From a bacterium (GTDB lineage: Bacteria; Patescibacteriota; Saccharimonadia; Saccharimonadales; DATKHC01): a stretch of 64,000 nt of DNA. How positions within the stretch are numbered: position 1 is the stretch's first letter; each line of letters opens with the position of its first letter. Below, piece by piece: positions 1 through 21,376 of this stretch. A model generated the notes under the pieces. The model was not told the origin of the DNA. It saw nothing but the letters and a program-made list of their open reading frames with translations, and searched no databases. Position numbers and translations under genes: made by a program. Location of the stretch: the NCBI GenBank assembly GCA_021781215.1, contig JAJXXC010000006.1:11029-75028 (forward strand), read 5' to 3'.

Positions 1-81
1 AGATATGAATATGCTAATGGTTTTAATTTGCATCTAATAATTTAAGCAAGCTTAATCAAACTTAACAAATAATTATTTAAA

Positions 82-564: not shown

Positions 565-1611
565 TTATGATTTTGTTTTTTCGTATGCCAAACTTCTCTT
601 AATTATTTCTGGGTAACGCATAAGATCATTATTGCCCCCGCTAATAATACAGACCACAGTCTTATTTTTTATTGAGTCTGCTATAGAATCTAGGCAGGAC
701 ACGGATAATGCTCCAGCCGGTTCGGTAATGATTCCGTCTTCTTGGTAAAGCTCAATCATTGTTGAGCATATTTTTCCGACCGGTATTACCAAAATACTTT
801 TCACTAAGTGCTTAACAATATTGAAGGTTTTAATTCCAACTTTTTTTACTGCAGCACCGTCAACGAATGTATCAATAGTTTCAAGGGTAATAATTTTATT
901 ATTCTTTATGGACTGTTCCATTGCTGCGGCGCCTTCTGGCTCGACTCCTATTATTTCAGTGTTTGTTCCTTTTTGATCAAAATAACTAGATACCCCGGCG
1001 ATTAATCCACCGCCACCGACGGGGCATATGACTATATCAACAATTCCATTCATGTCTTCATATATCTCTTTGGCAATCGTTCCTTGTCCGGCGATAATTA
1101 AATCATCGTCGAAAGGAGGGATAAATATAGAACTGGTTTGTTTGCAATTGGCTATTGCAAGTTCATGGCATTCATCAAAATTGTTGCCAACTAATTTAAT
1201 GCTAATATATTCACCACCCAGATACTTAACTCGGTTGATTTTTTGTTGTTGAGTAGTTATTGGCATAAATATAGTAGCTTTAATTTTTAGTTTTTTTGCG
1301 CTTAAGGCTACCCCCTGAGCATGATTTCCAGCACTGGCCGTAACGATTCCTAAATCTCTCTGAGCTTGATTTAGGCTAGAAATTAGATTATAGGCTCCAC
1401 GGATTTTATATGATCGAGTAGGCTGCAGATCTTCACGTTTTAGATATATTCTTGCGTTATATAAATTAGATAGCCGATCACTGTAATCTAAATCGGTGTG
1501 GGTGACTATATTGGCAATGTTTTTACTAGCTTCTTCAATAAGATCTAGCATAAATTCATCGGGAGTAGCTTCTATAGATTGTTTTGAATAATATTTGGTA
1601 TTTGTAGACAC
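565..1611 (-). CDS. threonine/serine ammonia-lyase (PLP-dependent dehydratase, no ACT domain)
   Basis: PLP-lysine motif SYKIRGAYN and glycine loop CPVGGGGLIAG; 348 aa. Confidence 0.85.
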   Translation of the reverse strand: MSTNTKYYSKQSIEATPDEFMLDLIEEASKNIANIVTHTDLDYSDRLSNLYNARIYLKREDLQPTRSYKIRGAYNLISSLNQAQRDLGIVTASAGNHAQGVALSAKKLKIKATIFMPITTQQQKINRVKYLGGEYISIKLVGNNFDECHELAIANCKQTSSIFIPPFDDDLIIAGQGTIAKEIYEDMNGIVDIVICPVGGGGLIAGVSSYFDQKGTNTEIIGVEPEGAAAMEQSIKNNKIITLETIDTFVDGAAVKKVGIKTFNIVKHLVKSILVIPVGKICSTMIELYQEDGIITEPAGALSVSCLDSIADSIKNKTVVCIISGGNNDLMRYPEIIKRSLAYEKTKS

Positions 1612-1627
1612 GTATTTATATCGAAAG

Positions 1628-2083
1628 TTAATTCGTCTTTCTGTCTTTGAGCATGTCTAGAATTTTAGTTTGATTTTCTAGTTCTTTCATTTGTCGATCT
1701 TGAAGATTAGCTAAGTAGGTTAGTGTTTCGTGATCTGAATCAGCTTTTGCTTCTTGTTGCCCTTGGATAACGTTTTGGCCCACCATAATAATTGGTAGAA
1801 GTACTAACTGAAGAAAGTTCTGAGAAATCCAAGCAATCAGAGTGATTAAACTAGTTGCAATAATCCATTTCGGAAAATCATGTTTAAGGCCCGGAGAAAT
1901 AAGAACTAATATTGCCGGAAGTGACAGTATCGATAGTAGGGCAAATAAATATGCGCTCCACATAGAGCCGACAGCATTAGTTATTTTAAGCGCTAGAGCG
2001 GTGTTAAATTTTCTAAAACCTTCTTCTTCTCGTCTGATTAAATCTTTTGGATGCTTAACGTGATCATTTTTATTTATATCCAT
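1628..2083 (-). CDS. DUF1003-like membrane protein
   Basis: Two central TM helices followed by QN..Q..EAKADSDHE and a coiled C-terminus, as in the DUF1003 family. Confidence 0.5.
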   Translation of the reverse strand: MDINKNDHVKHPKDLIRREEEGFRKFNTALALKITNAVGSMWSAYLFALLSILSLPAILVLISPGLKHDFPKWIIATSLITLIAWISQNFLQLVLLPIIMVGQNVIQGQQEAKADSDHETLTYLANLQDRQMKELENQTKILDMLKDRKTN

Positions 2084-2132
2084 AAATGAATTATATCAAA
2101 TCTATTTAAAATATATTGTTTGTTAGAATTAG

Positions 2133-2714
2133 ATGATGTATGTAGACGATAATTTAATTAGGTGTGAATGGTGTGGTGGTAATAAACTTTATGTAGAGTA
2201 TCATGATCGTGAATGGGGAGTTCCGCTTCATGATGATCAGAAGTTGTTTGAGTTATTAACGCTTGAAGGGGCTCAAGCCGGACTCAGTTGGCTAACCATA
2301 TTAAAACGACGCGATGGTTATCACAGGGCTTTTAATAAATTTAATATCGCCAAAGTCTCTCGGTTCAGTCAAGCCAAGGTTGATGAGTTGATTGATAACC
2401 ATCAAATTATTAGAAATAAACTTAAAATATTATCAGTAATCAAAAACGCAAAGGCAATACTCGATATTCAAGGTAAATTTGGTAGTTTTGATAATTATTT
2501 GTGGCAATATGTTGATAATAAGCCGATGATTTCTGAATCGAGCGGTCCGGGGTTAATTGAGGCTAAAGATATTGCGGTTTTAATTAGTAAAGACTTACGT
2601 AGGCGAGGCATGAATTTTGTTGGTCCAACAATTTGTTATGCCTTCATGCAGGCTAGCGGAATGGTCAATGACCATTCCCTGAATTGCTTCCGGAATAAAC
2701 AACTAGCAGTATAG
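2133..2714 (+). CDS. tag: DNA-3-methyladenine glycosylase I
   Basis: CEWCGG..YHDREWGVP..LFELLTLEGAQAGLSWLTILKRR is the Tag signature. Confidence 0.9.
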   Translation: MMYVDDNLIRCEWCGGNKLYVEYHDREWGVPLHDDQKLFELLTLEGAQAGLSWLTILKRRDGYHRAFNKFNIAKVSRFSQAKVDELIDNHQIIRNKLKILSVIKNAKAILDIQGKFGSFDNYLWQYVDNKPMISESSGPGLIEAKDIAVLISKDLRRRGMNFVGPTICYAFMQASGMVNDHSLNCFRNKQLAV

Positions 2715-2721
2715 GCTGAGT

Positions 2722-3948
2722 CTATTCCCAACGAAAAACTCTAAAGGCAATAGCGTAGACGATAACCGTCCATAGAGCAATCCAGCCCAGCTGTGAACCA
2801 ATTTGAGTTAAATGAAGTCCTTCAGTAGCCAGTAGCCTGACGCCATCAATTACAGGAGTTAACGGCAAGTAGTTAGTTATGTGCTGAAGCCATACTGGCA
2901 TGGCATAACGAGGGAAAAAAGTTCCGGATAAGAACAACATAGGGAAGACGATAATGTTAGCGAGCGGTGCGGCTTGACGTTCGTTTTTAGCCCAACCACC
3001 GATAGCTAAACCGATACCCAGGATCATAATAATACTCAATACTAGAAATAGGGCTATCTCTATATAGTTACCGACTACTCTTAGATTAAATATTGTTATA
3101 GCTGCAATAAACATAATTGCTAATGAGACTAGACCGATTATGGCCTGAGAGATCATGGTTGATAGGAAATACTGCCAAACTCTTATTGGCGTGGTGTGAA
3201 GTCTTCGTAGAATACCTTGTTTTTTAAGTTCTGGAAAAACGTTGACTGGACCAAAAATCCCCAGTCCGATAATCGAAAAGCCTAGTAGGCCGGAGAATGT
3301 ATAGTCGAACTGAGACAGGCTTCTTTGATTAAGTTCTTTTCCGGCGACAGAGAAAGGTGTTGAGGACTTAATAAATTTAGAATTAATACCCTGAAATTCA
3401 GTCTGCAAGATAGACACTAGAGTTTGTCCGGCCTGAGCGTTGTTGTTTGTATAGTAGACTACGGCCTGTCCACTAGGAATACCACTACTATTTTTATTGC
3501 CAAAATTACTAGGCAATAGTAGGGTAGCATCAAGCTGATTACGGTTCATCTTAGTTTGTGCTTCGGCAAGAGTTGTAACTGAAGAATCAATTTTTAATAG
3601 TTTGCTAGCCTGTTCCTGGTTGATGAATTCAGTAGCGTATTGACTGGTAGATTGATTAATTACCCCAACCTTAAACGATACACTATTACCACTTTTACCA
3701 AATATGCCACCAAAGACAAATAAGAAAATTAAAGGGAATAGCACTCCGAAGAATAATGCTAATCGATCACGAAAGAATCTTTTAGTGCTTAACTTGCTAA
3801 AAACTATGACTGTAAAGATCTTTTTTTGCCAGTTCGATAACTGTTTTTTAGCCTTTTTTGGCCTAATTCGTTTATTTATCCTTAGAATTAGTCTAGCTAA
3901 AACTAGTACGATCACTAAAATTATTAACCATGTATATTTTGAATGCAT
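2722..3948 (-). CDS. ABC-2 type transporter permease
   Basis: N-terminal TM, large extracytoplasmic loop and five C-terminal TMs; 4 nt downstream of its ATPase. Confidence 0.75.
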   Translation of the reverse strand: MHSKYTWLIILVIVLVLARLILRINKRIRPKKAKKQLSNWQKKIFTVIVFSKLSTKRFFRDRLALFFGVLFPLIFLFVFGGIFGKSGNSVSFKVGVINQSTSQYATEFINQEQASKLLKIDSSVTTLAEAQTKMNRNQLDATLLLPSNFGNKNSSGIPSGQAVVYYTNNNAQAGQTLVSILQTEFQGINSKFIKSSTPFSVAGKELNQRSLSQFDYTFSGLLGFSIIGLGIFGPVNVFPELKKQGILRRLHTTPIRVWQYFLSTMISQAIIGLVSLAIMFIAAITIFNLRVVGNYIEIALFLVLSIIMILGIGLAIGGWAKNERQAAPLANIIVFPMLFLSGTFFPRYAMPVWLQHITNYLPLTPVIDGVRLLATEGLHLTQIGSQLGWIALWTVIVYAIAFRVFRWE

Positions 3949-3952
3949 ATAA

Positions 3953-4711
3953 TTAATCCCTAAGTTTCTTTCCAGTTAAATCAATGAATACGTCTTCGAG
4001 GCTGGCTTGCTGGACCTCTTGAGATTTAGTGAAACCTTTTTTTAACAAGTCCTTAACTAATTGTCTCGGCGTATCAAGAGCAATAATTCTGCCCTCATCC
4101 ATAATAGCTACTCTATCGCATAATAGTTCTGCCTCTTCCATGTAGTGGGTGGTCATAATTACTGTCGTTCCCCTAGCTTGAATCTTTTGAACTAGATCCC
4201 ATAAGTTTCGTCTTGCTTGTGGATCAAGTCCAGTTGTTGGCTCATCCATAAAAAATACCTTAGGATTATGAACTAAAGCTACCGCTAGGCTCAATCTTTG
4301 TTTTTGTCCACCTGATAAATTTTCGGCATATGAGTTAGCTTTTTCATCTAGCTGTACTTCTTTGAGCAATTCTATTGGGTCAGTCCGCTCACCATAAGTT
4401 GCGGCAAACATTTCAATGATTTCAACCAGTTTTTGTTTATCCAAAAATGCTGGTGTTTGGGGCTGAACGCCAATTATTCGTTTAACTGCCTCGGGGTCTT
4501 TCGCAACATCAATTCCATCTAAAATTGCTTGGCCACCATCGATTGGTCGCAGTGCCTCAATCATCTCAAGGGTAGTAGTTTTCCCAGCACCGTTTGGGCC
4601 GAGGATACCAAAAACTTCACCGTACTTAACCTCAAAGCTAATAGACTTAACTACTTCTTTATCACCATATTTTTTGCTAAGTTTTTTTACTTCCAAGATA
4701 TTCTTTGACAT
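3953..4711 (-). CDS. ABC transporter ATP-binding protein
   Basis: Walker A GPNGAGKTT, signature LSGGQKQRL, Walker B FFMDEPTTGLD. Confidence 0.9.
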   Translation of the reverse strand: MSKNILEVKKLSKKYGDKEVVKSISFEVKYGEVFGILGPNGAGKTTTLEMIEALRPIDGGQAILDGIDVAKDPEAVKRIIGVQPQTPAFLDKQKLVEIIEMFAATYGERTDPIELLKEVQLDEKANSYAENLSGGQKQRLSLAVALVHNPKVFFMDEPTTGLDPQARRNLWDLVQKIQARGTTVIMTTHYMEEAELLCDRVAIMDEGRIIALDTPRQLVKDLLKKGFTKSQEVQQASLEDVFIDLTGKKLRD

Positions 4712-4815
4712 AGAAATATTCTAACAGGTTAGCATAGATACAGTAAGCCAACAGACCATTGTTGTCTGACCTACGTATACCAGTATTATCCTTTAATATA
4801 TACTAGGCAGTAATT

Positions 4816-6630
4816 ATGAAGAAATCTAAATCGCTTAATTCGGCTAAGGGGGTTGCATATACTTCTAGACGCTTGCTAGGAATTTTTTGGCGTGAAGATA
4901 AAAAGACTTTTATTGGCACTACGATTGCGGTCTTAGTTCCTAGCCTAATTCCTTTTATAAATGCATATATCTATGCTCTAATTATTAATTTTGTTATCAG
5001 TTCAGTTTGTTCTGCGCACCATATGTCTTACGACCCTCTATATATTCTAATTTTGATTAGAATATTAATGCTTTTCGTGCAAGACGCTGCTTACACCGCC
5101 CAGCAACGTTATAATTATATTTTTAGTGCTAGAATACCGCTGATATTTTCCCAGGCTATAATGAGACAATTATCACGATTAGATATTCAGCTTATAGAGA
5201 GTAGTGATTTTCAGAATAAGTTCCAAAGTGCTAGGGATAATGCCACATATCGACCATCCACCATGCTTGTCAACATCTTTTATTCAATGCAAAGCTTATT
5301 GCAATTATTGGTAGCAGCTGGCTCGCTATTCTTCCTTAATTGGATATTTGGTGTAATTATTTTACTTACAGCCCTACCAACTTTCTTTTATGAAGCTAAA
5401 AATGCTAAGTATGTATGGGCCATTTGGTCAGATAATTCACCCTACCGTAAAAGGTTTAATTATTTATACTATCAGTTACAATACCCCAGAAGTGTCAAAG
5501 AATTAAAGCTCTTTCAACTAAATGATTATTTTGTAAAACAAGGTGAAAAAATCGGAAATAAGTTTGCTGCCGAAAATATCGCCGCCCTTAATAAACGATT
5601 TTTATCCGGTGTTATAGCTAATTTAGTAAATGTAGCCGGTTATGCAGCCGTCGAAGTTTATATTATTTTTATTACATTAGCTAAAAAAATATCTATCGGA
5701 AGTTTAACTTATTATACGACCGCATTGATTAATTTTCAGAGTGGTGTAAATGGCTTATTTAGAACCGCGTCAAGTGTTTTTGAAGATAGTCAATATGTCA
5801 AAGAAGTTTTCGATATTTTGGATCTTGAACCCAAGTTGATATCTCCACCAGACGCCAAGGTTATTAAGTCTAATCGAACTCCGCGGATTGAGTTTAAAAA
5901 TGTATCATTTGCATATCCAGAATCAAAGACTAAAGTATTGGATAATTTCTCTATTACAATTGAGCCAGGAGATAAAGTAGCATTTGTTGGTGAAAACGGC
6001 GCTGGTAAGTCGACAATTATTAAATTACTCTGTCGTTTTTATGATGTTGATGCCGGAGAAATTCTTATTGACGGGATAAACGTAAAACAATTAAATCTAG
6101 TTGCCTGGTATCAACATATCGGAGTTATATTCCAAGATTTTCTACGATATGAGTATTCATTACGTAAAAATATTTGGTTCGGACAGATAGATAAACCCGA
6201 AGTAATTGAGTCTATTATTGCGGCTGCTGAACAGTCTGGGGCAGATGCAGTAGCGAAATCGTTGGACAAAGGATATGATCAGATGTTGGGTAATGTATTC
6301 GATGGCGGCATTGAACTATCTACTGGTCAGTGGCAAAAAGTTGCTTTGGCTCGTGGTTTTTATCGTAATGCACCAATCCTTATATTGGATGAACCTACAT
6401 CAGCGATAGACGCAAAGGCAGAGCATGAAATTTTCAGAAAAGTTGAAAAATTGACAAGTGATAAGACTGCAATAATTATTTCTCATCGTTTTTCTACAGT
6501 TCGTAACGCTGATAAAATCTATGTTATAGAAGACGGTAGAGCCGTTGAGTCAGGCTCTCATAAAGAGCTAATGAAACTTAACGGAATATATGCCGATTTG
6601 TTTAATCTCCAGGCTGAAGCATATAAATAG
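4816..6630 (+). CDS. fused ABC exporter (permease plus ATPase, MsbA-like)
   Basis: Six-TM N-terminal half; GENGAGKST, LSTGQWQKVALAR, ILDEPTSAID. Confidence 0.85.
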   Translation: MKKSKSLNSAKGVAYTSRRLLGIFWREDKKTFIGTTIAVLVPSLIPFINAYIYALIINFVISSVCSAHHMSYDPLYILILIRILMLFVQDAAYTAQQRYNYIFSARIPLIFSQAIMRQLSRLDIQLIESSDFQNKFQSARDNATYRPSTMLVNIFYSMQSLLQLLVAAGSLFFLNWIFGVIILLTALPTFFYEAKNAKYVWAIWSDNSPYRKRFNYLYYQLQYPRSVKELKLFQLNDYFVKQGEKIGNKFAAENIAALNKRFLSGVIANLVNVAGYAAVEVYIIFITLAKKISIGSLTYYTTALINFQSGVNGLFRTASSVFEDSQYVKEVFDILDLEPKLISPPDAKVIKSNRTPRIEFKNVSFAYPESKTKVLDNFSITIEPGDKVAFVGENGAGKSTIIKLLCRFYDVDAGEILIDGINVKQLNLVAWYQHIGVIFQDFLRYEYSLRKNIWFGQIDKPEVIESIIAAAEQSGADAVAKSLDKGYDQMLGNVFDGGIELSTGQWQKVALARGFYRNAPILILDEPTSAIDAKAEHEIFRKVEKLTSDKTAIIISHRFSTVRNADKIYVIEDGRAVESGSHKELMKLNGIYADLFNLQAEAYK

Positions 6631-6631
6631 T

Positions 6632-6886
6632 CTATAATCCTTCTCTGTATTCGAGACCTTCCCTAACTCCCATTTGATATACCTCGATTTCATTGATACT
6701 ATCACAACCAGCAATTTCAAGTCCTTGGATAATCCCATCATGGAATTTTGCTATAGTGTATAGCTTAAATGACTCAATTTGTTCATCTGTCGCTTCTGGG
6801 AATAAAGCACGTAGGAATAATTCAGGAGACCTATCGGTTTCAATAATTGCTTCGGCGGTAGGTAAATATGGAATGTATTCGGACAT
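6632..6886 (-). CDS. hypothetical small acidic protein
   Basis: 84-aa ORF; antisense ORF 6693..6896 judged spurious. Confidence 0.4.
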   Translation of the reverse strand: MSEYIPYLPTAEAIIETDRSPELFLRALFPEATDEQIESFKLYTIAKFHDGIIQGLEIAGCDSINEIEVYQMGVREGLEYREGL

Positions 6887-6997
6887 TTTTAAATAATAGC
6901 AAACTACTGCTTGTGCTCGTATAGTATTATTTACACTAAAGTTTGTGCGTTATAACTACGTAAAAAGCAATCTAACCAGCATAGAAAACGTAGGAAT

Positions 6998-7234
6998 CTA
7001 TTTAGATAAATCTTTTTTTAGTTGTTCGAATTGTTCTTTAGTTATCTCACCCTTAGCGTAGCGTTCTTTGACTATATCAATTGACCCAGACCCATTACTG
7101 GTGTTCGATTCGTGATTTTTTAATATTCGAACTACAGATAAGACAACAACGATTAGAATAACTAACCAAAACAACATCATAAATATTTCCCATCCACCAT
7201 AATTTCCGTTCATTCCTGGACCGTAATATTCCAT
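6998..7234 (-). CDS. SHOCT-domain small membrane protein
   Basis: One TM helix followed by KERYAKGEITKEQFEQLKKDL (SHOCT motif). Confidence 0.6.
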   Translation of the reverse strand: MEYYGPGMNGNYGGWEIFMMLFWLVILIVVVLSVVRILKNHESNTSNGSGSIDIVKERYAKGEITKEQFEQLKKDLSK

Positions 7235-7356
7235 TATCTATTCCTCCTGTATCTATAATTATACTCTCCGATGCAAATTGTATAATTTAATGATGATGTT
7301 TTGCTGGAGATTATACCCATTTGTATTTAACGAGAACTAAGTTCCAGTAAGTTAAT

Positions 7357-7497
7357 TTAGACTTTATGGTAAAAAACTTTATAGGCAACAAATGCTGCAA
7401 TAATTTGGATAATAGCCATAGTGATGAATAACCCATTGAAGCCGAACGCTCCAATTATTAAACCACCAATACCGGCGCCAATTGCTGCCGCAAACAT
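7357..7497 (-). CDS. possible GlsB/YeaQ/YmgE-like small membrane protein (46 aa, below ORF-track cutoff)
   Basis: Hand translation: MFAAAIGAGIGGLIIGAFGFNGLFITMAIIQIIAAFVAYKVFYHKV; glycine-zipper TM pattern. Confidence 0.35.
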   Translation of the reverse strand: MFAAAIGAGIGGLIIGAFGFNGLFITMAIIQIIAAFVAYKVFYHKV

Positions 7498-7599
7498 ATT
7501 GCCAGCTTAGTACTCATAAAATATATCAAAAAAGAATGGGACTTTCGTCTCTGTCTAAGTGGGGGATATATGTGGCGTCTTTAGTCATGGTTGCATCTA

Positions 7600-7878
7600 T
7601 TAGTTTTCAATCTTTGTAAATCTTGAGACTAGGTTATCTTGCCATTGAACGTATTCTGACCATTGATTTACAGGTCTAATAAAAGTCAGACCTGGACTAT
7701 ACTCAGCTTGATATAGAACACATAACTCATCTGTGGCTTCAAGAGTACCAAAGCCTATAACAAGGTACACCTTGCTCGGATCTTTATAATGTGAATATCG
7801 TACACCTACTTCTATTTGTTTGCTTGCAAACTCAATATCACTAACAATTTGCTCACCAGGTTTGTGTTCCATGCCCAT
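7600..7878 (-). CDS. DUF1653-domain protein
   Basis: YSHYKDPSKVYLVIG..EATDELCVLYQAEY...FIRPVNQW matches the DUF1653 pattern. Confidence 0.6.
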   Translation of the reverse strand: MGMEHKPGEQIVSDIEFASKQIEVGVRYSHYKDPSKVYLVIGFGTLEATDELCVLYQAEYSPGLTFIRPVNQWSEYVQWQDNLVSRFTKIEN

Positions 7879-7979
7879 ATTTTATACTTTAGGTATTGGA
7901 TAAGAAAATGCTTATGCCTGCAAGTTTTCAAACTGCTATTGCTTGCAAATAAGTGTAAAAGGGTGTTTCATATATCAAT

Positions 7980-8408
7980 ATGAAAAATCCCGAGAAAGAT
8001 CTATCGCCTTTTTCTTCAATTATTGATGGAAAGCTGAAAGACAATATAATAACAATTTTTGCTAATCACGTAAATGATGTGGTTATATGTCAAAGCTATG
8101 AGGACATAAAAGATCCAACAGAAATTATTTTATGTGGAGTAATTAAAACAAAAACTACGTTCGTGGGTATAGAAATTGTAAGTTATATTTTTAACGGAGA
8201 AGGGGATTTTGATGGAGGAGAAGTTGTTACTATAACTATAGGCCAGAGAGAATACTTAATTACATCAGAGGGCGTAGTGAGCGATGAAGCACCCATGGAT
8301 TATCTCGGCTGTGATGTTTTGGAAAATTTAGCATATTGGGTTAAACACGCAGATTATCATAAAGATCTCACTGAAATGTCAGTTGCTTTGTCGCAAGACG
8401 AAGAATGA
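7980..8408 (+). CDS. hypothetical acidic protein
   Basis: 142-aa ORF, no recognised motif. Confidence 0.4.
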   Translation: MKNPEKDLSPFSSIIDGKLKDNIITIFANHVNDVVICQSYEDIKDPTEIILCGVIKTKTTFVGIEIVSYIFNGEGDFDGGEVVTITIGQREYLITSEGVVSDEAPMDYLGCDVLENLAYWVKHADYHKDLTEMSVALSQDEE

Positions 8409-8470
8409 TAACACTCGTGCTTTAGTTGGCAACCGCAGACGCTATCTCTACTGAAATTAGAGCTATGGCA

Positions 8471-8797
8471 CTAGGTAGTTCGACCCATATAGTATCTTTG
8501 GTGATTCCCATCAGGCTTTAATATATAAATATCGGTTGTATATCCAAATATATCGGCCGTTTCTTCAAAATACCGTTTTTTAGCTTCTGCCAAAAATATC
8601 ACTTGTTCTTCAGAAACGACATCCGTTGCGTAATTTAGCGTATTAACACCTTCGTTCCATCCAAATATGGCCCATGTACCTAGAAAGTTAGGGACGCTTG
8701 GCCATTCTTCATAATGGTCTGGAACTAGGTCAAGATTTTCTAAGCAAAATAAGGCTTGAGGAAATGTAGGTTTTAACTCACGTTCACTTGCAGTCAT
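8471..8797 (-). CDS. hypothetical protein
   Basis: 108-aa ORF, no recognised motif. Confidence 0.4.
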   Translation of the reverse strand: MTASERELKPTFPQALFCLENLDLVPDHYEEWPSVPNFLGTWAIFGWNEGVNTLNYATDVVSEEQVIFLAEAKKRYFEETADIFGYTTDIYILKPDGNHQRYYMGRTT

Positions 8798-10775: not shown

Positions 10776-10850
<75 letters not shown>

Positions 10851-10952
10851 TCGGAGAGTTACAGATGAGATTTTATTATAAAATACCTAGACTAAAGATT
10901 TGTGGCCAAATCTCATCTGTTAAATAGTTTGATTCTATTCAATGATAGATTG

Positions 10953-11261
10953 CTAAAGGATTCTGTCTAGGTCTCTGCGTCCGTATAGCATACGCCTAAT
11001 TATCATGACATTATCTATGACAACATAGAATATTAGGTAATTGCCTACAAGAATTCTGCGGTATGGGTATGGTCGGTTGTCTAGTGACTGGTAGGGTGCT
11101 ACGCTCAGTGGATTACTGAGACGTTTTTTAATGGCAGCTTCAGCATTATTAACAAGTGTTTTTGCCGCTAAATTGTTTTTAAGCTCAAATAATAGATAAT
11201 CTGTAATATTATCTAAATCTTCATAGAAAAGTGGAGAGTAACGAAGCTCAAAGTTAGCCAT
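10953..11261 (-). CDS. RelE/ParE-family type II toxin
   Basis: 102 aa with family-typical pattern (YSPLFYEDLDNITDYL...YLIFYVV..NVMIIRRMLYGRRD); overlaps the upstream antitoxin by 8 nt. Confidence 0.65.
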   Translation of the reverse strand: MANFELRYSPLFYEDLDNITDYLLFELKNNLAAKTLVNNAEAAIKKRLSNPLSVAPYQSLDNRPYPYRRILVGNYLIFYVVIDNVMIIRRMLYGRRDLDRIL

Positions 11262-11520
11262 TTATTTTTGCATTAATTTTAGAGAATACATCATCATGCG
11301 TTAGGTTTTCGGCGTGACTATTTGCGTAAATATCAGCTTCGTCAAGAGCACGCTCAATATAATCAAGATGAGATAGTTTACTAAATTTATCAAAACTCAT
11401 GGTCACCATAGAAGCTCTTCCGTTCGTAGTAAAGATAACAGGCTTATTTTTACCACTAACTTCTTGCTCCACTTCTGTAAAGTGATTTCTTAAATCAGAT
11501 ATGGGTCTAATAGTTAACAT
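11254..11520 (-). CDS. Phd/YefM-family antitoxin
   Basis: MLTIRPISDLRNHFTEVEQEV..KPVIFTTNGRASMVTMSFDKF; start moved to the internal ATG at 11520. Confidence 0.7.
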   Translation of the reverse strand: MLTIRPISDLRNHFTEVEQEVSGKNKPVIFTTNGRASMVTMSFDKFSKLSHLDYIERALDEADIYANSHAENLTHDDVFSKINAKING

Positions 11521-11639
11521 AATATATATCCTTTTATAGTTATCATAATTATGATAACACATAATTCAAGATTTGTTTATTTCTTAATGTCTTATTACAT
11601 CTAATAATTTCTCTGACCAAAATCTTATAAACTGATTAA

Positions 11640-11744
11640 TCTAGGTCACCAATTCCCGTAACAGAAGACGAGATTGATGCATGGGAAGAGATTACTTTCA
11701 TTCCAACACACGATTGGCTTGAAAGTAAAAGCATCAAACAGTAG
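11640..11744 (+). pseudogene. start-less C-terminal gene remnant
   Basis: Open frame SRSPIPVTEDEIDAWEEITFIPTHDWLESKSIKQ* with no start codon; begins at a GGTCACCA copy of the tRNA-Glu 3' end. Confidence 0.3.
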
Positions 11745-11767
11745 CGTTAAGACTTATCCAATTTACG

Positions 11768-11858
11768 CTAACTAATACCTCGTACCACCTGAGTAACTCG
11801 GAACAAATAACATTCCAATTCGAGTGGAGCGGGGTCACTATACTCACATGTGCGCCAT
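11768..11858 (+). repeat. cassette-boundary repeat, tRNA-Glu subfamily (left of vapBC)
   Basis: About 80% identical to 12610..12696; contains GGGGTCACTA, which resembles the tRNA-Glu 3' end GGGGTCACCA. Confidence 0.75.
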
Positions 11859-11868
11859 ATATAAGTAC

Positions 11869-11897
11869 TTGACAAATAGTGCCTACATGCCTACACT
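11869..11897 (+). promoter_or_regulatory. putative sigma70-type promoter of vapBC (leaderless geometry)
   Basis: TTGACA-17 nt-TACACT; the -10 box ends 6 nt before the ATG at 11904. Confidence 0.45.
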
Positions 11898-11903
11898 AAG
11901 AGT

Positions 11904-12179
11904 ATGTCAACTATTCAATATACAATTCGTGGGGTTCCACCTGAGATTGATGCTAGGCTTCGTCGTTTAGCTCGCTTAAAAAACCGTAGCCTTAATCAGG
12001 TTGTTCTTGAACAACTGTCTTCTAATAAGTTAATTTTGCCTAAAAGGTCAACTAATATTGTTAAATCTAAGGTCAATACAGATTTTGATGATTTATTTGG
12101 CAGTATTACACCTCTTGAACCAGAAGTAGAAGCAGCTCTAATCTCTCAGCGAGTGGTGAATCCTAAAGATTGGCAATAA
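11904..12179 (+). CDS. vapB: ribbon-helix-helix antitoxin (VapB/FitA-like)
   Basis: N-terminal YTIRGVPPEIDARLRRLARLKNRSLNQVVLEQL; stop lies 1 nt before the PIN gene. Confidence 0.6.
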   Translation: MSTIQYTIRGVPPEIDARLRRLARLKNRSLNQVVLEQLSSNKLILPKRSTNIVKSKVNTDFDDLFGSITPLEPEVEAALISQRVVNPKDWQ

Positions 12180-12180
12180 T

Positions 12181-12573
12181 ATGGACTTCGACCTACTGGT
12201 CTTGGACACAAATTACTATTCAGCCTTGGCGAAAAAAGACATTAGTGTTAATTCACTTATCCGAAATTCAGAAGAAATTGCTTTACCTCATACAGTAATC
12301 GGTGAGTTACTTGGAGGTTTTCGTTATGGAAGCCAATTTGATAAAAACTATAACGATTTAAAACGACTTCTAGCAAAGCCAACATGCAGAGTACTCATGC
12401 CATCCATAGAAACAGCAAATATATATGGTCGACTATATGCTGATCTTAAGAGGCGTGGAAAAATGATTCCTATGAATGATATTTGGATAGCAGCTCTAAC
12501 TATTGAGTACGAAGGAACACTAGCTACGTATGACAAAGATTTCACCGCCATCCAAGGCATTAAGCTTGTTTAG
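12181..12573 (+). CDS. vapC: PIN-domain toxin VapC
   Basis: LVLDTNYY (first acidic residue), mid E/D residues and C-terminal TYDKDF; 130 aa. Confidence 0.8.
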   Translation: MDFDLLVLDTNYYSALAKKDISVNSLIRNSEEIALPHTVIGELLGGFRYGSQFDKNYNDLKRLLAKPTCRVLMPSIETANIYGRLYADLKRRGKMIPMNDIWIAALTIEYEGTLATYDKDFTAIQGIKLV

Positions 12574-12609
12574 CGGCTTTAATAGAAGATAGATTTAGCC
12601 AATCTTTTT

Positions 12610-12696
12610 CGATTAATACTTGGTACCATCTAAGTATTTCAGAACAAATAACCTTCCAATTCGAGTGTAGCGGGGCCACCAGTATACTTATGCCAT
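12610..12696 (+). repeat. cassette-boundary repeat, tRNA-Glu subfamily (right of vapBC)
   Basis: Direct repeat of 11768..11858; contains GGGGCCACCA. Confidence 0.75.
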
Positions 12697-12852: not shown

Positions 12853-13563
12853 ATGAATGAACAGAATCTTAACCCTGGAGCTATACCGGCATCAGGTCTT
12901 AGTGAGGAAGATAACCAGAAAGTAAAAGATATTTATTCGCAGCATGGTAGAGCGTCGAGTGATCTAGGATTGGCACAAGATGTTCAGGCGAAAGTGGTAG
13001 CACATGAAGCTGAAATAAATGACCCTGAGCCCGCAAATGGAATCGATCCTAGTAGTGGCGAATACAGAAAACTTGAGCGATGGGAAAGAGACAATAGTTC
13101 GCTACCCAATATGCCTGATTCTACAGGCGCACAGGGAATAGTTGATAACGCTCAAGATAGCTATGACCTATCAGTAATTCGTGGACAAAAGCATTTCGAA
13201 CAACATATGCCCGAATATGTTGAACAAGCAAAAATTGATGCAGCAGCTGAGGGTATATCGATAAATTCTAATGCTCATGAAGAACTTTTAACCCCTAGTG
13301 CACTAGAAGCACAGCTCGGATTGGAACATCTAGACGATATTGAACTTCGATTAAATAGAGCAGAAGCACTTCTTGCAGCATTGCTTCAAGAGTGCCAGCA
13401 AGTACCAAATACATTCACAGTATACGGCAAGAAGACCATGGAGATATCAATCGAGAAAGTAGATAAGGTTTTAGACCAATTTAGAAGTAAAAAAACGATG
13501 GATGACCGAAATATAATTGTATCTGAGATGCGCAATCAGGCATATGATGAAGCATCGAATTAA
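12853..13563 (+). CDS. hypothetical acidic protein
   Basis: 236-aa ORF, no recognised motif. Confidence 0.45.
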   Translation: MNEQNLNPGAIPASGLSEEDNQKVKDIYSQHGRASSDLGLAQDVQAKVVAHEAEINDPEPANGIDPSSGEYRKLERWERDNSSLPNMPDSTGAQGIVDNAQDSYDLSVIRGQKHFEQHMPEYVEQAKIDAAAEGISINSNAHEELLTPSALEAQLGLEHLDDIELRLNRAEALLAALLQECQQVPNTFTVYGKKTMEISIEKVDKVLDQFRSKKTMDDRNIIVSEMRNQAYDEASN

Positions 13564-13762
13564 TAGCTCAACAACAAACTAACAATTAAGCTTCACTTGA
13601 CGTTAGAAGTTTGCTTAATGGATATAGCTATTTCAATAAGCAATGCCACTCATTAATTTCTGTACAGATATTGTTTCGGTTCGAACTGAGGTGGTTCAGT
13701 ATTACACATACGTTTAATGCAGACGTATTAAGAATTACAAAATACATGCTATAGTATGCATC

Positions 13763-16419: not shown

Positions 16420-18843
16420 ATGACCCAGCGCTTACCAATACCTGGTGGCGATGATGGTGATTGGGGAGATATTCTTAATGGATATCTTGGTGTATCACTG
16501 TACAGTGACGGCACTCTAAACCCTAATGTAGTATCTGATTCTCAAGTAGCTAGCTCCGCAGCCATTAATCCTACTAAAATCTCTGGTATTGCGGAAGTGC
16601 GGACAAATAAAAATCAACCTAGTGGTTATGCGGGATTAAATAGCTCTGGTTTTGTGCCAGTGGCTCTTATCCCTGATGCTACGACATCTGTCCCGGGTAT
16701 AGTTCAATTAGCGGGTGACTTGGGTGGTAGCGGTACTACTGCTGTCGCGCCAACTTTGGCTAATACTAGTAATGTTCAAAGTGTAGTGAATAGTATTATT
16801 GCTACTAATACTACAGTGGCTGGGGCTTTGCAAAAGACTAATAATCTAAGCGATGTTAATGATCCTGGATATAGTCGAGCAAACCTCCATGTTCCAGTAC
16901 TGACTCCGGCTGCCTGTGTATCCGTAACTAATGTGGCCAGTCTTTCGGGCCTTAACACCTATGATGGGTATACTTTAGTCACAGGAGATACGGTTCTTTT
17001 AGTCGCTCAATCTACAGCATCTCAGAATGGAGTCTGGATAGTTGCTTCGGGTTCTTGGATACGTCCTACAGAATTTGCTTCAGGTTCAACTATTAAGGGT
17101 AGGTCAATCCTAATTACTAATGGTGCTACCTATGGCAACACTCAATGGTCATTAGATGCTCCTACAGCAGGTATAACTATAGACACTACTTCTCAGACTT
17201 GGAATAACCTAAATACTTTAAATGGTAAGTACACATCTGTTTTTGGTGTAGCCGCACCAACTGGAGCAGCTGCTACAGATGCCGTCAATATCCAAACACA
17301 GATTAATAATGCTTCATCTAATGGTGGTGGAATCGTACAGCTCCAAATAGGTACCTATGCTTTATCATCAACCTCGCGTATTGATTCCACTGTAACTTAT
17401 TATTCCGCTACATCAGGGTCTTATCCTGCTGGGTCATGGCAGGACTCTTCTATTACATCAGCTGATGTCGGCTCTTATGTTATCGGAATAGGCATTAATG
17501 GCCGTTCGCCTAAGATTTTAACGGTTGTTACCTCACCTGTTACCTACTTTACTACTGATATTGCTCCAGGTGGAACGATATCCGCTTCGGCTGTAACTAT
17601 AGTTAATCCTGGCATTGTGTTGCCAGATGGTGTCACTCTCCAAGGAATAGCTGCGCCGTCAGGTGATGTAGAAGCAAAAACTGTATCTGGTGGAACAACT
17701 ATCGTAGATAGTGGCACCGGAGTAAGTATCTTCTTGCGCGGTGGAGATAATATCGCTGCCTATTTCGGACGTTCTAAAATCAAAGATTTAGGAATATGGG
17801 GTTCAGCGACCTATGGTTCAGTTGGAAGTACTTTAGCCGGTATTTGGGCAAACAATAACACTTCATTCTTAGAGATATGGGACTGTGACATCTCCGGTCA
17901 TTATCAGTTTGGGCTAGCGCTAGATTACAATATTAATTCACTAGATTGCCATAATACGGGCTTTAGCTACTGTGGTCACGCCAGTGCTACTAGCCCAACA
18001 GGTGGTGTGGGAACTGATGTTTATAACGGGTTTGCTTCAGCCGCAATTAATTTTTACAATTGTTGGGGATATAATCTATGGGGCTGGTTTATTGCTCTTG
18101 GTAGCGGTGGACAGGGATCAATCTGCCTTTATAGTTGCCAATGGAATGGTATTAAAGCAACTTCTGCTTATCTATCTGGTTCGGGTGTTCAGGTATCTGG
18201 GCCAAATTCTGTATTGGTAGATTGTTGGTCTGAAACATGTGCTTCCTATGATGTAATAGTTGGCTATGGTTATTGCACTATTATTGCGAGTACTTTATTT
18301 GGTGGTGGGGTTGGTGCTGTCCAAGTTGCTGGATCGTCAACAATAGTTAATCTTATAGGTATTGCTAGCTCTGGTCACAGTACTGCCGCGGTCGTTAATT
18401 CTAATGCCGGTCACGTGTCATGGATGAACTGTCATATCTCAGATTCTGTATTCCTAAATGGCGTGGCTACACCAACGCAGGCAGGAGGTATTGGAACAAC
18501 TAGTAATCTCGTGAGTGCCGGAACAGTTCCAGTCCCTAATGCCGTAACGGTAACTACCAATGCTGGAACCATCCCAGTTACGTCCAGTATTAATACATTC
18601 ACTAATTCATCGTCTGCAGCTATGAGTATTACTTTGGCTACCTCTGGAGCCGTCCAAGGACAGCAGACGATCGTACAAGTATACGATTATGCAGGCACTA
18701 CCGAGTCAATCACTTGGGTTAATACCGAGAACTCTACTATTAGTGTTCCAACTACATCTAATGGATCAACAACATCGCCACTAACTGTTGAATTCATATT
18801 TAACGCTAAGACTACGAAGTGGCGCTGTATTCGATCGGTTTAG
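16420..18843 (+). CDS. large signal-less tail-fibre/beta-helix-like surface protein
   Basis: N-terminus MTQRLPIPGGDDGDWGDILNGYL is shared with 19358..21376; NNLSDV..SRANL motif; NGGGIVQLQIGTYAL pectate-lyase-3-like segment; G/S/T/N-rich. Confidence 0.6.
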   Translation: MTQRLPIPGGDDGDWGDILNGYLGVSLYSDGTLNPNVVSDSQVASSAAINPTKISGIAEVRTNKNQPSGYAGLNSSGFVPVALIPDATTSVPGIVQLAGDLGGSGTTAVAPTLANTSNVQSVVNSIIATNTTVAGALQKTNNLSDVNDPGYSRANLHVPVLTPAACVSVTNVASLSGLNTYDGYTLVTGDTVLLVAQSTASQNGVWIVASGSWIRPTEFASGSTIKGRSILITNGATYGNTQWSLDAPTAGITIDTTSQTWNNLNTLNGKYTSVFGVAAPTGAAATDAVNIQTQINNASSNGGGIVQLQIGTYALSSTSRIDSTVTYYSATSGSYPAGSWQDSSITSADVGSYVIGIGINGRSPKILTVVTSPVTYFTTDIAPGGTISASAVTIVNPGIVLPDGVTLQGIAAPSGDVEAKTVSGGTTIVDSGTGVSIFLRGGDNIAAYFGRSKIKDLGIWGSATYGSVGSTLAGIWANNNTSFLEIWDCDISGHYQFGLALDYNINSLDCHNTGFSYCGHASATSPTGGVGTDVYNGFASAAINFYNCWGYNLWGWFIALGSGGQGSICLYSCQWNGIKATSAYLSGSGVQVSGPNSVLVDCWSETCASYDVIVGYGYCTIIASTLFGGGVGAVQVAGSSTIVNLIGIASSGHSTAAVVNSNAGHVSWMNCHISDSVFLNGVATPTQAGGIGTTSNLVSAGTVPVPNAVTVTTNAGTIPVTSSINTFTNSSSAAMSITLATSGAVQGQQTIVQVYDYAGTTESITWVNTENSTISVPTTSNGSTTSPLTVEFIFNAKTTKWRCIRSV

Positions 18844-19220: not shown

Positions 19221-19361
19221 ATGGTGCACTTTAGTAGCAGTTTTAATTTAGAACTAAAGACAGCCACCGCTATACCCAATAGTAAAAATCTATCGGATTC
19301 TATAGCTTCAGTCATAGCCAGTATTGTAATTAAACTACAGACGCAGAGCATAAAGTCATGA
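19221..19361 (+). CDS. truncated homolog of the 16017 leader ORF (46 aa)
   Basis: Hand translation MVHFSSSFNLELKTATAIPNSKNLSDSIASVIASIVIKLQTQSIKS; ATGA stop/start overlap with 19358. Confidence 0.3.
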   Translation: MVHFSSSFNLELKTATAIPNSKNLSDSIASVIASIVIKLQTQSIKS

Positions 19362-21376
19362 CCCAGCGTTTACCAGTACCGGGCGGTGATGATGGCGATT
19401 GGGGAGATATTCTTAATGGATTCTTGGATGTGTCACATAACGCTGACGGAACCTTGCAGCCGCAGGCTGTTGCGTCTGCTGGTGCCGTAACTAAGGTTAA
19501 CAACCTCTCCGATTTAACCTCTACTGCTACTGCTCGAGCTAACCTAGGTTTGGGAACGGCAGCTGCATCCGATAAGGTAGCCGCTGGCTCGGCGGGTGTA
19601 TTAGATGCTACCGACCCAACTACAACCAATAGTAGAGCACCAGTTGGTGCGGCTACTGGAGATTTATCGGGAACCTATCCTAGCCCTACAGTAGCTCGAT
19701 TAAATGGAATTGCAGTTTCTGGAACTCCTGGAATCGGAGACTTATTAACTGCCACTAACTCTAGTAATGCAGCATGGCAATCTAAACCCTATGTCTCTAG
19801 GATCAGTGGCACCAGCACCACCATAGCTCCGTTAGCCTATTTTAATATTAAAGATTATGGAGCTAAGATTGATGGAGTTACTGATGACTCAGCTGCTGTA
19901 AATGCTACCATAACTGCTGCCTTTGCAGCAGGAGGAGGTCGAGTTATTATTCCGCCCGGAGTCGTAGCATTAAGTGCGCCAATTATTCACGCTTCGTACG
20001 TTATTCTAGAAGGTTCTGGATCAGATGTTAACGGATCCTCGGGGACTATTCTCAAGCCCCTAAGCAATTACGGAGATGTAATTTCCATTCCTACCGGACT
20101 AACGGGGTTTGCTATCCGGCAGTTATCGATTATATATTCAGGAATGAACCAGTATAGTAGTTCTGCTAGCGCCTCTACGCACGCTGCAATAAAGTTCACT
20201 ATTGCAACATCTTCGGCCACTCAAACAATTCAGGGCTTAATAGAGGACGTGGTAGTAATTGGTATGAAAGTTGCCGTATATATGCCCTGGGTTCTAGGAA
20301 GTAGCCTCAATTATTCTCAGTATTATCAGATAATGCTACAACGCCTTCAATTTGCTTCTAATGGCATCAATCTGCTTATGAATGGTTTTTCCGATTCAAT
20401 TATTAACAGTATAATCTGTAACAATACGTTTGGCGTATTACCTTCTAGTCTAGAGACTCGCGTTGCACCGATAGCATCTACTGCTACTCCGTCAGGAACT
20501 TATACCATAGCGTCACAGAATTGGATTAATGACCTTGGAAATAGTCTAATTGATAAATTAGAGGTGTATGGTGGTACGGGTGATGGTATTGTTTTCCAAG
20601 ACTGCATAACAACTACTATTCGGGCCTGTGAGTCAGGGTCCCTGACGGGAAATGGAGTAACTATGCTTGGTTGTAACTCTCAGACCTGTTTGTATGGTCT
20701 TCATGTCGGTCTTGTTAGCGGGCATGGAGTATATGTAACTGATTCAGCTACCAGCAATAATCCTTCTGTAGATTGTCAATTTTTTGGACTGAACGTTAAT
20801 ACAGCCAATTTGCACGGGGTCTATGTTCATGCCGCAGTTTCAGCTGCTGAACGCTTAGGCTTTTATGGCTGCCAGATAAATAATAATAGTCTCTCTGCTG
20901 CTAATACTTACAATGGGCTCGAGCTAGAAGCTTCTAGCGTAGTAGTAGTTGGAGGTACTTACGGTGATTATCAAGTCACGCATACGCAGAGATACGGGAT
21001 TAATAATCGCTATTCTGGGTCTTCTGGGCTAACGGTTATAGGCGTCGAGATGAAGAACAACTTAACTGGCCCAATGGCTCAGCCTAACGACACCACGGGC
21101 CGGATGATTGCTAATATCGGGCTAAACAATACCGCTTTTAGCACCTATACTCCAGGAGTACCTGCTGTTGGATCATCAAACGCAATCGGCAACGGTAATG
21201 CCTATGATATTACTATATATATGTCAGGAACTGCTCCGTCTGGAGTCCATATCGTCGATGTTAACGGGACTGATCAAAACTTAGCAGGCAATCCAACTGT
21301 TGTACATTTGCATCCCAATGAGAGAATATATTTCAACACTACATCTCCCGGGGCCTGGATGTGGTACGGCGAATAA
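19358..21376 (+). CDS. pectate-lyase-superfamily (right-handed beta-helix) tail-fibre-like protein
   Basis: YFNIKDYGAKIDGVTDDSAAVNATITAAFAAGGGRVIIPPG (Pectate_lyase_3 signature); NNLSDLTSTATARANLGLG fibre motif; no signal peptide. Confidence 0.7.
   Translation: MTQRLPVPGGDDGDWGDILNGFLDVSHNADGTLQPQAVASAGAVTKVNNLSDLTSTATARANLGLGTAAASDKVAAGSAGVLDATDPTTTNSRAPVGAATGDLSGTYPSPTVARLNGIAVSGTPGIGDLLTATNSSNAAWQSKPYVSRISGTSTTIAPLAYFNIKDYGAKIDGVTDDSAAVNATITAAFAAGGGRVIIPPGVVALSAPIIHASYVILEGSGSDVNGSSGTILKPLSNYGDVISIPTGLTGFAIRQLSIIYSGMNQYSSSASASTHAAIKFTIATSSATQTIQGLIEDVVVIGMKVAVYMPWVLGSSLNYSQYYQIMLQRLQFASNGINLLMNGFSDSIINSIICNNTFGVLPSSLETRVAPIASTATPSGTYTIASQNWINDLGNSLIDKLEVYGGTGDGIVFQDCITTTIRACESGSLTGNGVTMLGCNSQTCLYGLHVGLVSGHGVYVTDSATSNNPSVDCQFFGLNVNTANLHGVYVHAAVSAAERLGFYGCQINNNSLSAANTYNGLELEASSVVVVGGTYGDYQVTHTQRYGINNRYSGSSGLTVIGVEMKNNLTGPMAQPNDTTGRMIANIGLNNTAFSTYTPGVPAVGSSNAIGNGNAYDITIYMSGTAPSGVHIVDVNGTDQNLAGNPTVVHLHPNERIYFNTTSPGAWMWYGE

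Follow-up and report, generated by a model that had tools for sequence, protein, structure and literature searches.

The tRNA-Glu Locus and the ssrA Array

The DNA analysed here (the window) is a stretch of 64,000 nucleotides of contig JAJXXC010000006.1, from a member of the Saccharimonadales, in which a transfer RNA (tRNA) gene, tRNA-Glu(UUC), and the gene for transfer-messenger RNA (tmRNA, ssrA) are each followed by short cargo blocks closed by a direct repeat. Each repeat consists of an arm and of a core, the latter being a copy of the 3' end of the RNA gene lying upstream. The repeats are interpreted here, with a probability of roughly 80%, as junction scars of elements that depend on large serine recombinases (LSRs), the scars being made of the detached C-terminal end of the recombinase gene. 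The features of the two loci are reported in Table 1.

Copies of the tRNA-Glu end had been reported at 11644, 11831 and 12672 in an earlier note drawn up from the letters of the window; all of them are present, and a further exact copy of GGTCACCA, embedded in phd (11401-11408, codons M-V-T), had been missed. The same note had these copies delimit three segments, a division that does not hold: the copy at 11644 is armless, and profile searches upstream of it gave no arm signal. Since nothing apart from GGTCACCA itself marks 11401 and 11644 as junctions, two clear cassettes are counted, one with parE-phd and the other with vapBC, and probably a third one. About 0.013 copies of GGTCACCA are expected by chance in this region (less than 800 nt past tRNA-Glu), where two extra armless copies are seen; that at 11644 might be either a chance match or an old core. 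In a 1-kb contig of another assembly (L007, positions 1-60, compared with window positions 11650-11690) the sequence to the left of GAAGAGATTAC differs, and the remnant open reading frame (ORF) has its own ATG (MRKLREEITFIPTHDWLESKRIKQ); this difference may represent strain variation or a chimeric contig end.

The direct repeat described in the earlier note (about 87 nt, about 80% identity) proved to be real, with 78% identity over 89 nt (11750-11838 versus 12591-12679, repeat family D8) and true limits lying slightly further to the left; a profile search widens the two copies to 11743-11845 and 12584-12687. The toxin-antitoxin genes named there were also recognised by Pfam, which identified ParE, Phd, a ribbon-helix-helix (RHH)-like protein and a PIN protein, so that, on the basis of Pfam and of gene adjacency, both pairs (ParE/Phd and RHH/PIN) can be assigned to type II toxin-antitoxin modules; the RHH match to PF22513 sits just under the 27-bit gathering cut-off. 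The palindrome upstream of phd probably serves parE-phd as its autoregulatory operator. Position 12696 had been given as the end of the locus, but the array probably runs on up to a degenerate arm at about 13631-13715. This segment is the top non-arm match of the tail profile (E = 0.11), and a block of about 65 nt of it is, by eye, roughly two-thirds identical to the attR arm of a complete element found elsewhere (L060, see below); it is a probable decayed arm closing a third cassette around the 236-amino acid (aa) ORF, the probable cargo.

Table 1. Genes, repeats and other features of the tRNA-Glu locus and of the ssrA array (positions refer to the window).
Feature	Position	Strand	Evidence and remarks
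tRNA-Glu(UUC)	10776-10850	+	ARAGORN and Rfam; 3' end GGGGTCACCA
Recombination core, last 8-10 nt of tRNA-Glu (putative B half-site and crossover region)	10841-10850		GGGGTCACCA
Segment right of the core	10851-10880	-	TCGGAGAGTTACAGATGAG...; frame reads NLICNSPMV, then antisense tRNA TPRRIELLLPG (stop)
parE-phd operon, cassette 1 cargo	10953-11562	-	Pfam
ParE	10953-11261	-	PF05016, 5e-10
Phd	11254-11520 (ORF start possible at 11562)	-	PF02604, 4e-8
Perfect 18-bp palindrome TTATCATAATTATGATAA	about 11540-11557		Sequence; just upstream of phd
Isolated GGTCACCA, no arm	11644-11651	+	At the beginning of a 34-codon ORF remnant without a start codon (11640-11744)
Arm 1 and core	11743-11840	-	Core GGGGTCACTA at 11831-11840; reads ..HVSIVT/PLHSNWNVICSELLRWYEVLVSVNW...; profile match 7.7e-26
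vapB-like RHH (FitA-like), cassette 2 cargo	11904-12179	+	PF22513, 1.2e-5, 25.6 bits
vapC (PIN), cassette 2 cargo	12181-12573	+	PF01850, 1.1e-10
Arm 2 and core	12584-12681	-	Core GGGGCCACCA at 12672-12681; reads ..GISILVA/PLHSNWKVICSEILRWYQVLIEKDW...
236-aa ORF	12853-13563	+	Between arm 2 and the degenerate arm; no Pfam match
Degenerate arm relic (probable), 'NHLTSNWNHI' subtype, decayed core	about 13631-13715	-	Reads ..CVILNHLSSNRNNICTEINEWHCLLK (stop); peptide VILNHLSSNRNNICTEINEWHCLL
tmRNA (ssrA), second target	40794-41179	+	Rfam RF00023, 87.9 bits; 3' end ..GCTCCACCA
ssrA cassette array, eight units of 0.5-2.2 kb	41180-48720	+	Repeat families D1-D5; nhmmer E 1e-18 to 1e-29
Ends of the ssrA arms	42549, 43396, 44620, 45668, 46696, 47181, 47847, about 48680		

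Each unit of the ssrA array closes with an arm of about 110 nt, a CCACCA-type core and a terminator-like segment of about 45 nt. The minus strand of the arms encodes MLMVEHLLKNWHQIYEELIRW.. peptides, and in the roughly 45 nt after every core it reads ..KTSELTEVIMLMVE; arms 6 and 8 are decayed. A Shine-Dalgarno sequence, an ATG and a conserved stop are found in these arms, which are annotated by gene callers as ORFs of 35-76 aa. Three relatives (L008, L011 and L012) harbor an ssrA array in the syntenic place, with different cargo and with no integrase nearby. The cargo of the window array includes a Nudix hydrolase, an SGNH hydrolase, a methyltransferase, a VIT1-family transporter and several proteins without an assigned function.

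Homology Between the Glu and the ssrA Arms

According to the earlier note, the Glu repeats align colinearly and without gaps to the ssrA arms at 55-60% identity. The homology stands, whereas the identity is lower: when the Glu arms were anchored at the CCA end and compared without gaps to seven ssrA arms, 43-45% of 87 nt were identical, against 27 +/- 4% in a null of 20,000 random windows (z = 4.1-4.4, empirical p about 1-2e-4). With the core removed, the identity is 42% (p about 3.5e-4). The alignment of the two repeat subfamilies versus controls, which the note had suggested, is therefore above the random-window null. As far as DNA profiles are concerned, a search of the window with that of the ssrA arms matched only Glu arm 2, at an insignificant E value (5.6) and in exact register with the core, and that of the Glu arms failed to reach the ssrA arms; the relationship is visible only with the core anchor or at the peptide level.

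In order to compare the encoded peptides, a profile constructed exclusively on 24 public ssrA-type small ORFs was searched against 2787 six-frame peptides from the window and from the initial 8.7 kb of L002, a contig of a different sample. The Glu arms were retrieved at E = 5.4e-4 and 1.3e-3, with noise starting from E = 0.8; they ranked after the seven ssrA arms and the antisense frame of the tmRNA 3' end, and before the eighth, degenerate ssrA arm and the arm of L002. A degenerate pattern common to both families gave six matches in the window versus none expected. The minus-strand peptide NW-x8-RW, whose sharing the earlier note had pointed out, was found in both Glu arms and in the ssrA arms, and it is coding sequence. 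Judging from the anchored comparison and from the peptide profile, the Glu and the ssrA arms are homologous.

A TTCGA motif occurs in the arms (e.g., at 11815-11840) at nearly the same distance from the CCA end, with an offset of 1 nt, as the T-loop TTCGA of the tRNA (10824-10850). Either the arm descended from a tRNA 3' half, or the motif is a recognition sequence common to both half-sites.

The Arm as the Probable 3' End of a Recombinase Gene

On the minus strand, PLHSNWKVICSEILRW is retained by all of the 12 distinct Glu-type arms collected from the window and from other genomes, and the column entropy over it is 0.23, 0.09 and 0.78 at codon positions 1, 2 and 3, respectively; the third-position bias includes the PLHS codons, which had been left free by the search pattern. 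Since the DNA differences fall mostly at third codon positions, the arm evolves as coding sequence. It is not a free-standing gene, because starts are not conserved (Glu-type arms are often without a start codon) and indels in L014 and L015 shift the frame relative to the core.

The long ORFs in which the arm is embedded disclose its nature. A Saccharimonadales metagenome-assembled genome (MAG; L021/L056) has six Glu-type arms, and the most distal one closes a long ORF, P0025, which, when extended upstream in frame, contains the zinc ribbon of serine integrases (CVNCKLPMTACAPSDSPRYFCSRKPC) and is truncated before the catalytic domain. The homologues of P0025 share a common body, ..IDYALNFMTNVAKQW..IFPQGF.LDIK..NFIS..SPLY....NSVLV, followed by one of two types of ending, namely arm peptides (TPLHSNWKVICSEILRW; TVNRSLYRVIAKEIIRW; NHLTSNWNHILEDINQW) or antisense-tRNA tails (IPRGIEPLLPG; IPRRIELRLPG). 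A profile of the body retrieved 874 proteins at E < 1e-3 among 1.84 billion representative ones. Its full-length members (505-575 aa) contain the Pfam domains Resolvase and Recombinase, some with a zinc ribbon, i.e., the architecture of LSRs, and about 35 out of 38 of them (hand count) have antisense-tRNA tails of the G[IVFL]EP type; in at least nine further, shorter representatives, one of which is of the Met type, the C-terminal LSR body is fused to an arm tail.

The domain assignments are consistent with one another. Resolvase (PF00239) was matched at 2.8e-23 (L040:4959-6548), 8e-27 (P0038) and 1e-25 (P0044), and the catalytic motifs GYIRISDKKQ/YxRVSTxxQ are visible in the LSRs, which also match PF07508, as well as PF13408 at E = 8e-4 and 20.1 bits, under the 25.3-bit cut-off. 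The precomputed annotation of P0129 includes Zn_ribbon_recom, and CxxC...CxxxxxC motifs are visible in the LSR homologues. In the AlphaFold model of P0025, residues 41-100 form a long helical hairpin (predicted local distance difference test, pLDDT, 80-88). Pfam recognised no family in the 168-aa L021 fragment or in P0025-P0035; the LSR identity of this group is based on the in-frame upstream zinc ribbon and on the body profile search. The possibility that the arm is an integrase N-terminus was considered and rejected: ten arm peptides matched just ORFs of 35-76 aa, and the long ORFs carry the arm C-terminally.

From these comparisons, the NW-x8-RW peptide is recognised as the C-terminal tail of an LSR whose gene spans the attachment site attP. 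The repeat is the 3' end of a recombinase gene, combining one attP half-site with a coding tail, and not a dedicated site of the attC type.

Complete Elements and Insertion Polymorphism

Elements with an entire LSR gene were found outside the window. In L040, a metagenome contig of 6.56 kb, an LSR ORF of 529 aa (4959-6548) reads into a tRNA 3' end at the contig edge and ends ..KSLLVTSRGIEPRLPG (..EKSLLVTSRGIEPRLPG); at the other end (165-262), the core-side TTGGTGACC is followed by the arm LVTLLRKNWNEIVEEIMRW.. (LVTLLRKNWNEIVEEIMRWGEIF..), in the same codon phase as the LSR. In L060, a genomic contig of 193 kb, the LSR overlaps tRNA-Glu(CUC) by 41 nt, and about 6.4 kb from it GTGGTGAAC is followed, in phase, by the arm FVVNHLTSNWNHILEEINQW.. 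(NHLTSNWNHILEEINQWYDLL). An LSR overlap of 41 nt, here with tRNA-Glu(UUC), is present in L059 and L064 too. In both L040 (TTGGTGACC) and L060 (GTGGTGAAC), the core lies in the LSR ORF and the parts of the gene at the two ends share one phase; since the body at the tRNA has a tRNA-encoded tail and the conserved tail lies at the far end, integration splits the LSR gene. Moreover, 5'-truncated LSR relics lie at the distal end of the tRNA-Glu arrays in L056 and L057.

The last LSR codons of L040, KKDLSEKEKS (about 6480-6530), correspond, by eye, to a hairpin and a T run on the opposite strand, directly after the tRNA. The same applies to the KTSELTEV-coding end of the ssrA-type junctions (window 41180-41225), directly after the tmRNA. 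The coding end of the recombinase seems to double as terminator of the target gene.

Contig L002 bears directly on the tRNA-Glu locus. From GGGTCACCA rightwards, its sequence and that of the window are the same (100% identity) over more than 9 kb; left of the core, a different and more G+C-rich element replaces tRNA-Glu and folD. This element ends in the arm ..PMVTLATPIYNAIVAEIIRWNGIL and then the core, exactly at the tRNA-Glu core, and it runs off the contig on the left, its visible part measuring at least 8.6 kb. Hence, the comparison of tRNA-Glu loci of related strains advised in the earlier note disclosed an insertion polymorphism at the exact tRNA-Glu core of the window. The L002 junction is what would be expected for the attR of an element that had entered at the tRNA-proximal junction, on the upstream side of a parE-phd block already in place. 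The "cassette capture" proposed by the note is not demonstrated; what has direct support is the serial integration of elements at the tRNA-proximal junction (L002 versus the window). The L002 island (1-8670), whose integrase, like its left end, falls outside the contig, harbors a small resolvase and a DnaD-like protein, as well as ArsP- and ZIP-like transporters, DUF3105 and a CsoR-like regulator.

To the right of the core, the in-frame codons read NLICNSPMV/TPRRIELLLPG (stop) at the tRNA junction, HVSIVT/PLHS at arm 1 and ISILVA/PLHS at arm 2; the L015 junction reads KNSLMV/IPRGIEPL. By comparison, LSR genes finish ..NSVLV or ..KNSLMV and then continue into the antisense tRNA, and a segment equal to 10851-10880 also trails the arm-core junctions in L056 and L002. 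Segment 10851-10880 is likely to be what is left of the final codons of a recombinase gene (P' half-site), and in that case the tRNA junction would be attL-like. Every junction thus looks like a tRNA or an arm, followed by the core and by a short relic of an LSR end, an arrangement in which the tRNA-proximal site might be used once more by a new attP.

Targets, Distribution, and Cargo in Other Genomes

The arm pattern gave no match in viral contigs. It was found 11 times in species-representative genomes (eight matches in Saccharibacteria/Saccharimonadales, the other three looking like chance) and 32 times in metagenome contigs, where roughly 20 matches are of the arm type and about ten are due to chance or to an unrelated membrane-protein family. 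The arms are linked to tRNA-Glu in L014, L015, L020, L056, L057 and L060 (core ..GGTCACCA), to an initiator-type tRNA-Met in L026, L035 and L055 (core ..CGCAACCA), and to tmRNA (core ..CTCCACCA). Arms lie 1.1-1.5 kb downstream of the target in the same orientation (L014, L015 and L020 for tRNA-Glu; L026, L035 and L055 for tRNA-Met), and in each of these cases the core corresponds to the last 8-10 nt of the target gene. The hosts are Saccharibacteria/Saccharimonadales MAGs, and the arrays may include six arms (L056). These data suggest one element family in Saccharibacteria, with the 3' ends of tRNA-Glu, initiator tRNA-Met and tmRNA as targets.

The tRNA-proximal cargo consists of toxin-antitoxin pairs in L014, L015 and L020, as in the window; in L057, an RHH-ParE pair is located instead at the end of the array with the LSR relic. 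A fragment with 93% identity to the VapC of the window (58 aa aligned, at the locus end) adjoins a Glu-type arm in another species representative (L017, 7825-7998). Cargo families are also shared between arrays whose anchor genes differ: a Nudix gene occurs in an ssrA unit of the window and in Glu-type units elsewhere (L053, 1036-1446; L015, 950-1153; 60% identity), and a VIT1 transporter occurs in an ssrA unit of the window and, with 65% identity, past a Met-type arm whose anchoring tRNA is outside the locus (L013, 3907-4614).

Proposed Mechanism and Alternative Explanations

The following model can be proposed. The LSR gene would span attP, with the arm containing its last 30-40 codons, on the other side of the crossover core. 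Integration into the final nine or so nucleotides of a tRNA-like gene would split it: the gene body would stay by the tRNA at attL, antisense into the tRNA and gaining a short tRNA-encoded tail, and the tail-coding arm, with a copy of the core, would come to lie at the opposite end of the element (attR). Further elements would insert at the tRNA-proximal junction, each scar of arm and core closing a cargo block, and repeated insertion there would let the scars pile up downstream of the target gene. Excision, or the arrival of a second element in tandem, would rebuild the full LSR frame, and the tail-bearing LSR of these forms might be the integration-competent enzyme. Blocks without an LSR may have been mobilised in trans or left by internal deletion. 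In this frame, several proposals of the earlier note find their place: one mechanism at both loci agrees with the homology of their arms (peptide profile, anchored identity), the adaptation of the core to the local 3' end is borne out by an arm family lying behind tRNA-Glu, initiator tRNA-Met and tmRNA with matching cores, and the recombinase acting at the acceptor/CCA end can be named as an LSR whose frame crosses the core.

Several points weigh against this model. No LSR gene, body or remnant was found in the window by searching all six frames with LSR and X-region profiles, which retrieved arms only. No LSR with an ssrA-type tail (MVEHLLKNWHQIY), or reading into tmRNA (expected ..MLMVELVGITPTSEGLP), was retrieved; the link between ssrA arms and LSRs would then stem from their homology to the Glu and Met tails. 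All elements were seen in the integrated state, none as a circle or in excised form. The normal partner of attP in LSR recombination is attB alone, and reinsertion beside a used junction would require a putative B' role for the relic of the right half-site. In the AlphaFold model of P0025 the mean pLDDT is 60, and the tail, a helix at pLDDT <55, was not used. Lastly, the 'Resolvase' ORF of L002 was examined as a candidate LSR and discarded: it is a catalytic domain of 154 aa followed by a stop and a helix-turn-helix-like stretch, i.e., of the small resolvase type.

With no LSR body in the window, its blocks are LSR-less units, and the question arises of what they represent. They might never have moved as blocks, being the remains of full LSR elements of about 6 kb after internal deletion had removed the LSR body and most other genes, reshuffled only by homologous recombination. 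This is a serious possibility, even if held at less than even odds: internal-deletion remains are favoured by the truncated LSRs of L056 and L057 and by the decay of arms, one visibly beyond vapBC and two in the ssrA array (6 and 8), and the lack of an LSR in the window is in keeping with them; yet ten or so window blocks all lack any LSR fragment and each has the relic right of the core and a full arm, a regularity of block ends that disfavours random deletion, and the VapC fragment beside a Glu-type arm in another species representative is not in keeping with it either. Conversely, the regular block ends, the lack of LSR debris and the L017 VapC fragment favour non-autonomous units. One might go further and imagine an integron-like cassette system run by LSRs, in which LSR-less units with both attP half-sites would be excised and reinserted in trans, with the 3' ends of tRNA-Glu, of initiator tRNA-Met and of tmRNA as their sites; the LSR would bear the arm-encoded tail in the circular or tandem form and the tRNA-antisense tail when integrated, a switch altering its activity or directionality. 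This view is put forward tentatively and is rather unlikely.

The other explanations concern the arms themselves. If they were functional alone, as the repeated gene of a 38-aa protein or as a folded site similar to attC, the Shine-Dalgarno sequence, ATG and stop of the ssrA-type arms, annotated as ORFs of 35-76 aa, would be accounted for, and the unit spacing and toxin-antitoxin cargo do recall chromosomal integrons; but Glu-type arms are often startless, indels shift their frame versus the core (L014, L015), the identical peptide is the C-terminus of long LSR ORFs, and single-strand DNA folding is no better than that of shuffled sequences (z from -1.16 to +1.73 for four arms, two of them on both strands), which makes this explanation very improbable. 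It is known that the 3' ends of tRNA and tmRNA genes are the classic targets of tyrosine integrases (PMC7192596), and tandem islands formed by such an enzyme, with the arm as the region binding its arm-type domain and accessory proteins, might be supposed; however, no tyrosine recombinase was found in the window or in the surroundings (10 kb) of any of the arrays retrieved, and the arm is in frame with serine recombinase bodies and evolves like coding sequence, so that this option appears extremely improbable. That the arm similarity and the recurrence of tRNA ends are due to chance is hardly conceivable: the cores are merely 8-10 nt long and the DNA-profile similarity is insignificant, but the anchored identity (z about 4), the peptide profile (E about 1e-3 versus a noise floor of 0.8) and the shared pattern, which besides its six window matches recovers tRNA-linked arms in other genomes, all contradict it.

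Comparison with Known Systems

The LSRs described here share with the serine integrases phiC31, Bxb1, A118 and TP901-1 the order of Resolvase, Recombinase, zinc ribbon and coiled coil, and with known serine integrases in general the short att sites, the small crossover core and the location of the integrase gene beside attP; they differ in their targets, those of known serine integrases being mostly protein-coding or intergenic. The use of tRNA and tmRNA genes by serine integrases was called unreported and in want of proof in 2020, when 14 computational cases were described (PMC7192596). A literature search, with most subscription journals outside it, yielded neither arrays of this kind nor an LSR gene that runs across attP at the 3' end of a tRNA gene and swaps its C-terminus. 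The closest design is that of the "suicidal" integrases of the SSV type (SSV1, Thermococcales; PMC7253208, PMC8371274), in which the att site likewise lies in the integrase frame, integration into a tRNA splits the gene into two parts, one at either end of the element, and excision restores it; these, however, are tyrosine recombinases of the viruses and plasmids of archaea, whereas here an LSR of Saccharibacteria is concerned and only the last 30-40 codons are detached. The system probably represents a bacterial serine-recombinase counterpart of the archaeal design; since an intact LSR gene would exist only in the excised or tandem form, a control of directionality may be inherent in the arrangement.

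The loci have the properties of additive islands anchored on tRNA or tmRNA genes, i.e., a downstream position, direct copies of the 3' end and variation among relatives. The tycheposons of Prochlorococcus likewise target the 3' ends of a few tRNAs and of tmRNA; their islands are additive, with the newest material proximal to the tRNA, and their cargo is bounded by partial tRNA repeats. Their scars, however, are tRNA fragments and not pieces of an integrase gene, and the units described here (0.5-2.2 kb) are much smaller; tyrosine recombinases are used by 910 out of 937 tycheposons and LSRs by 27 (bioRxiv 10.1101/2020.12.28.424599). Chromosomal integrons resemble the arrays in their units of 0.5-1.2 kb with one or two genes, in their repeats of about 100 nt, in the entry at one end and in the abundance of toxin-antitoxin modules (PMC13108822). 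Nevertheless, attC folds and the arms do not, and here the units have their own promoters and terminators and a tRNA-like anchor. Neither IntI nor attI was found among the window ORFs or in the annotated neighbourhoods of five arrays; lacking IntI and arms that fold, the system cannot be classed as an integron.

The data provide a sequence-level account of how the small, host-dependent genomes of the Candidate Phyla Radiation keep variable gene arrays at tRNA-like genes, with a cargo of toxin-antitoxin modules, Nudix and SGNH hydrolases, methyltransferases and metal transporters. They also add well-supported computational examples of serine integrases targeting tRNA genes, the tmRNA being linked through arm homology only. 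Given that the att sites are short and their sequences defined, the enzymes could be tested as tools and as a possible route to the genetics of Saccharibacteria.

Other Features of the Window

Downstream of the tRNA-Glu locus, two paralogous ORFs (16420-18843, 807 aa, and 19358-21376, 672 aa) share a 95-nt 5' end that is 81% identical and encodes MTQRLP.PGGDDGDWGDILNG.; the precomputed annotation assigns a pectate-lyase-like domain to one of the two.

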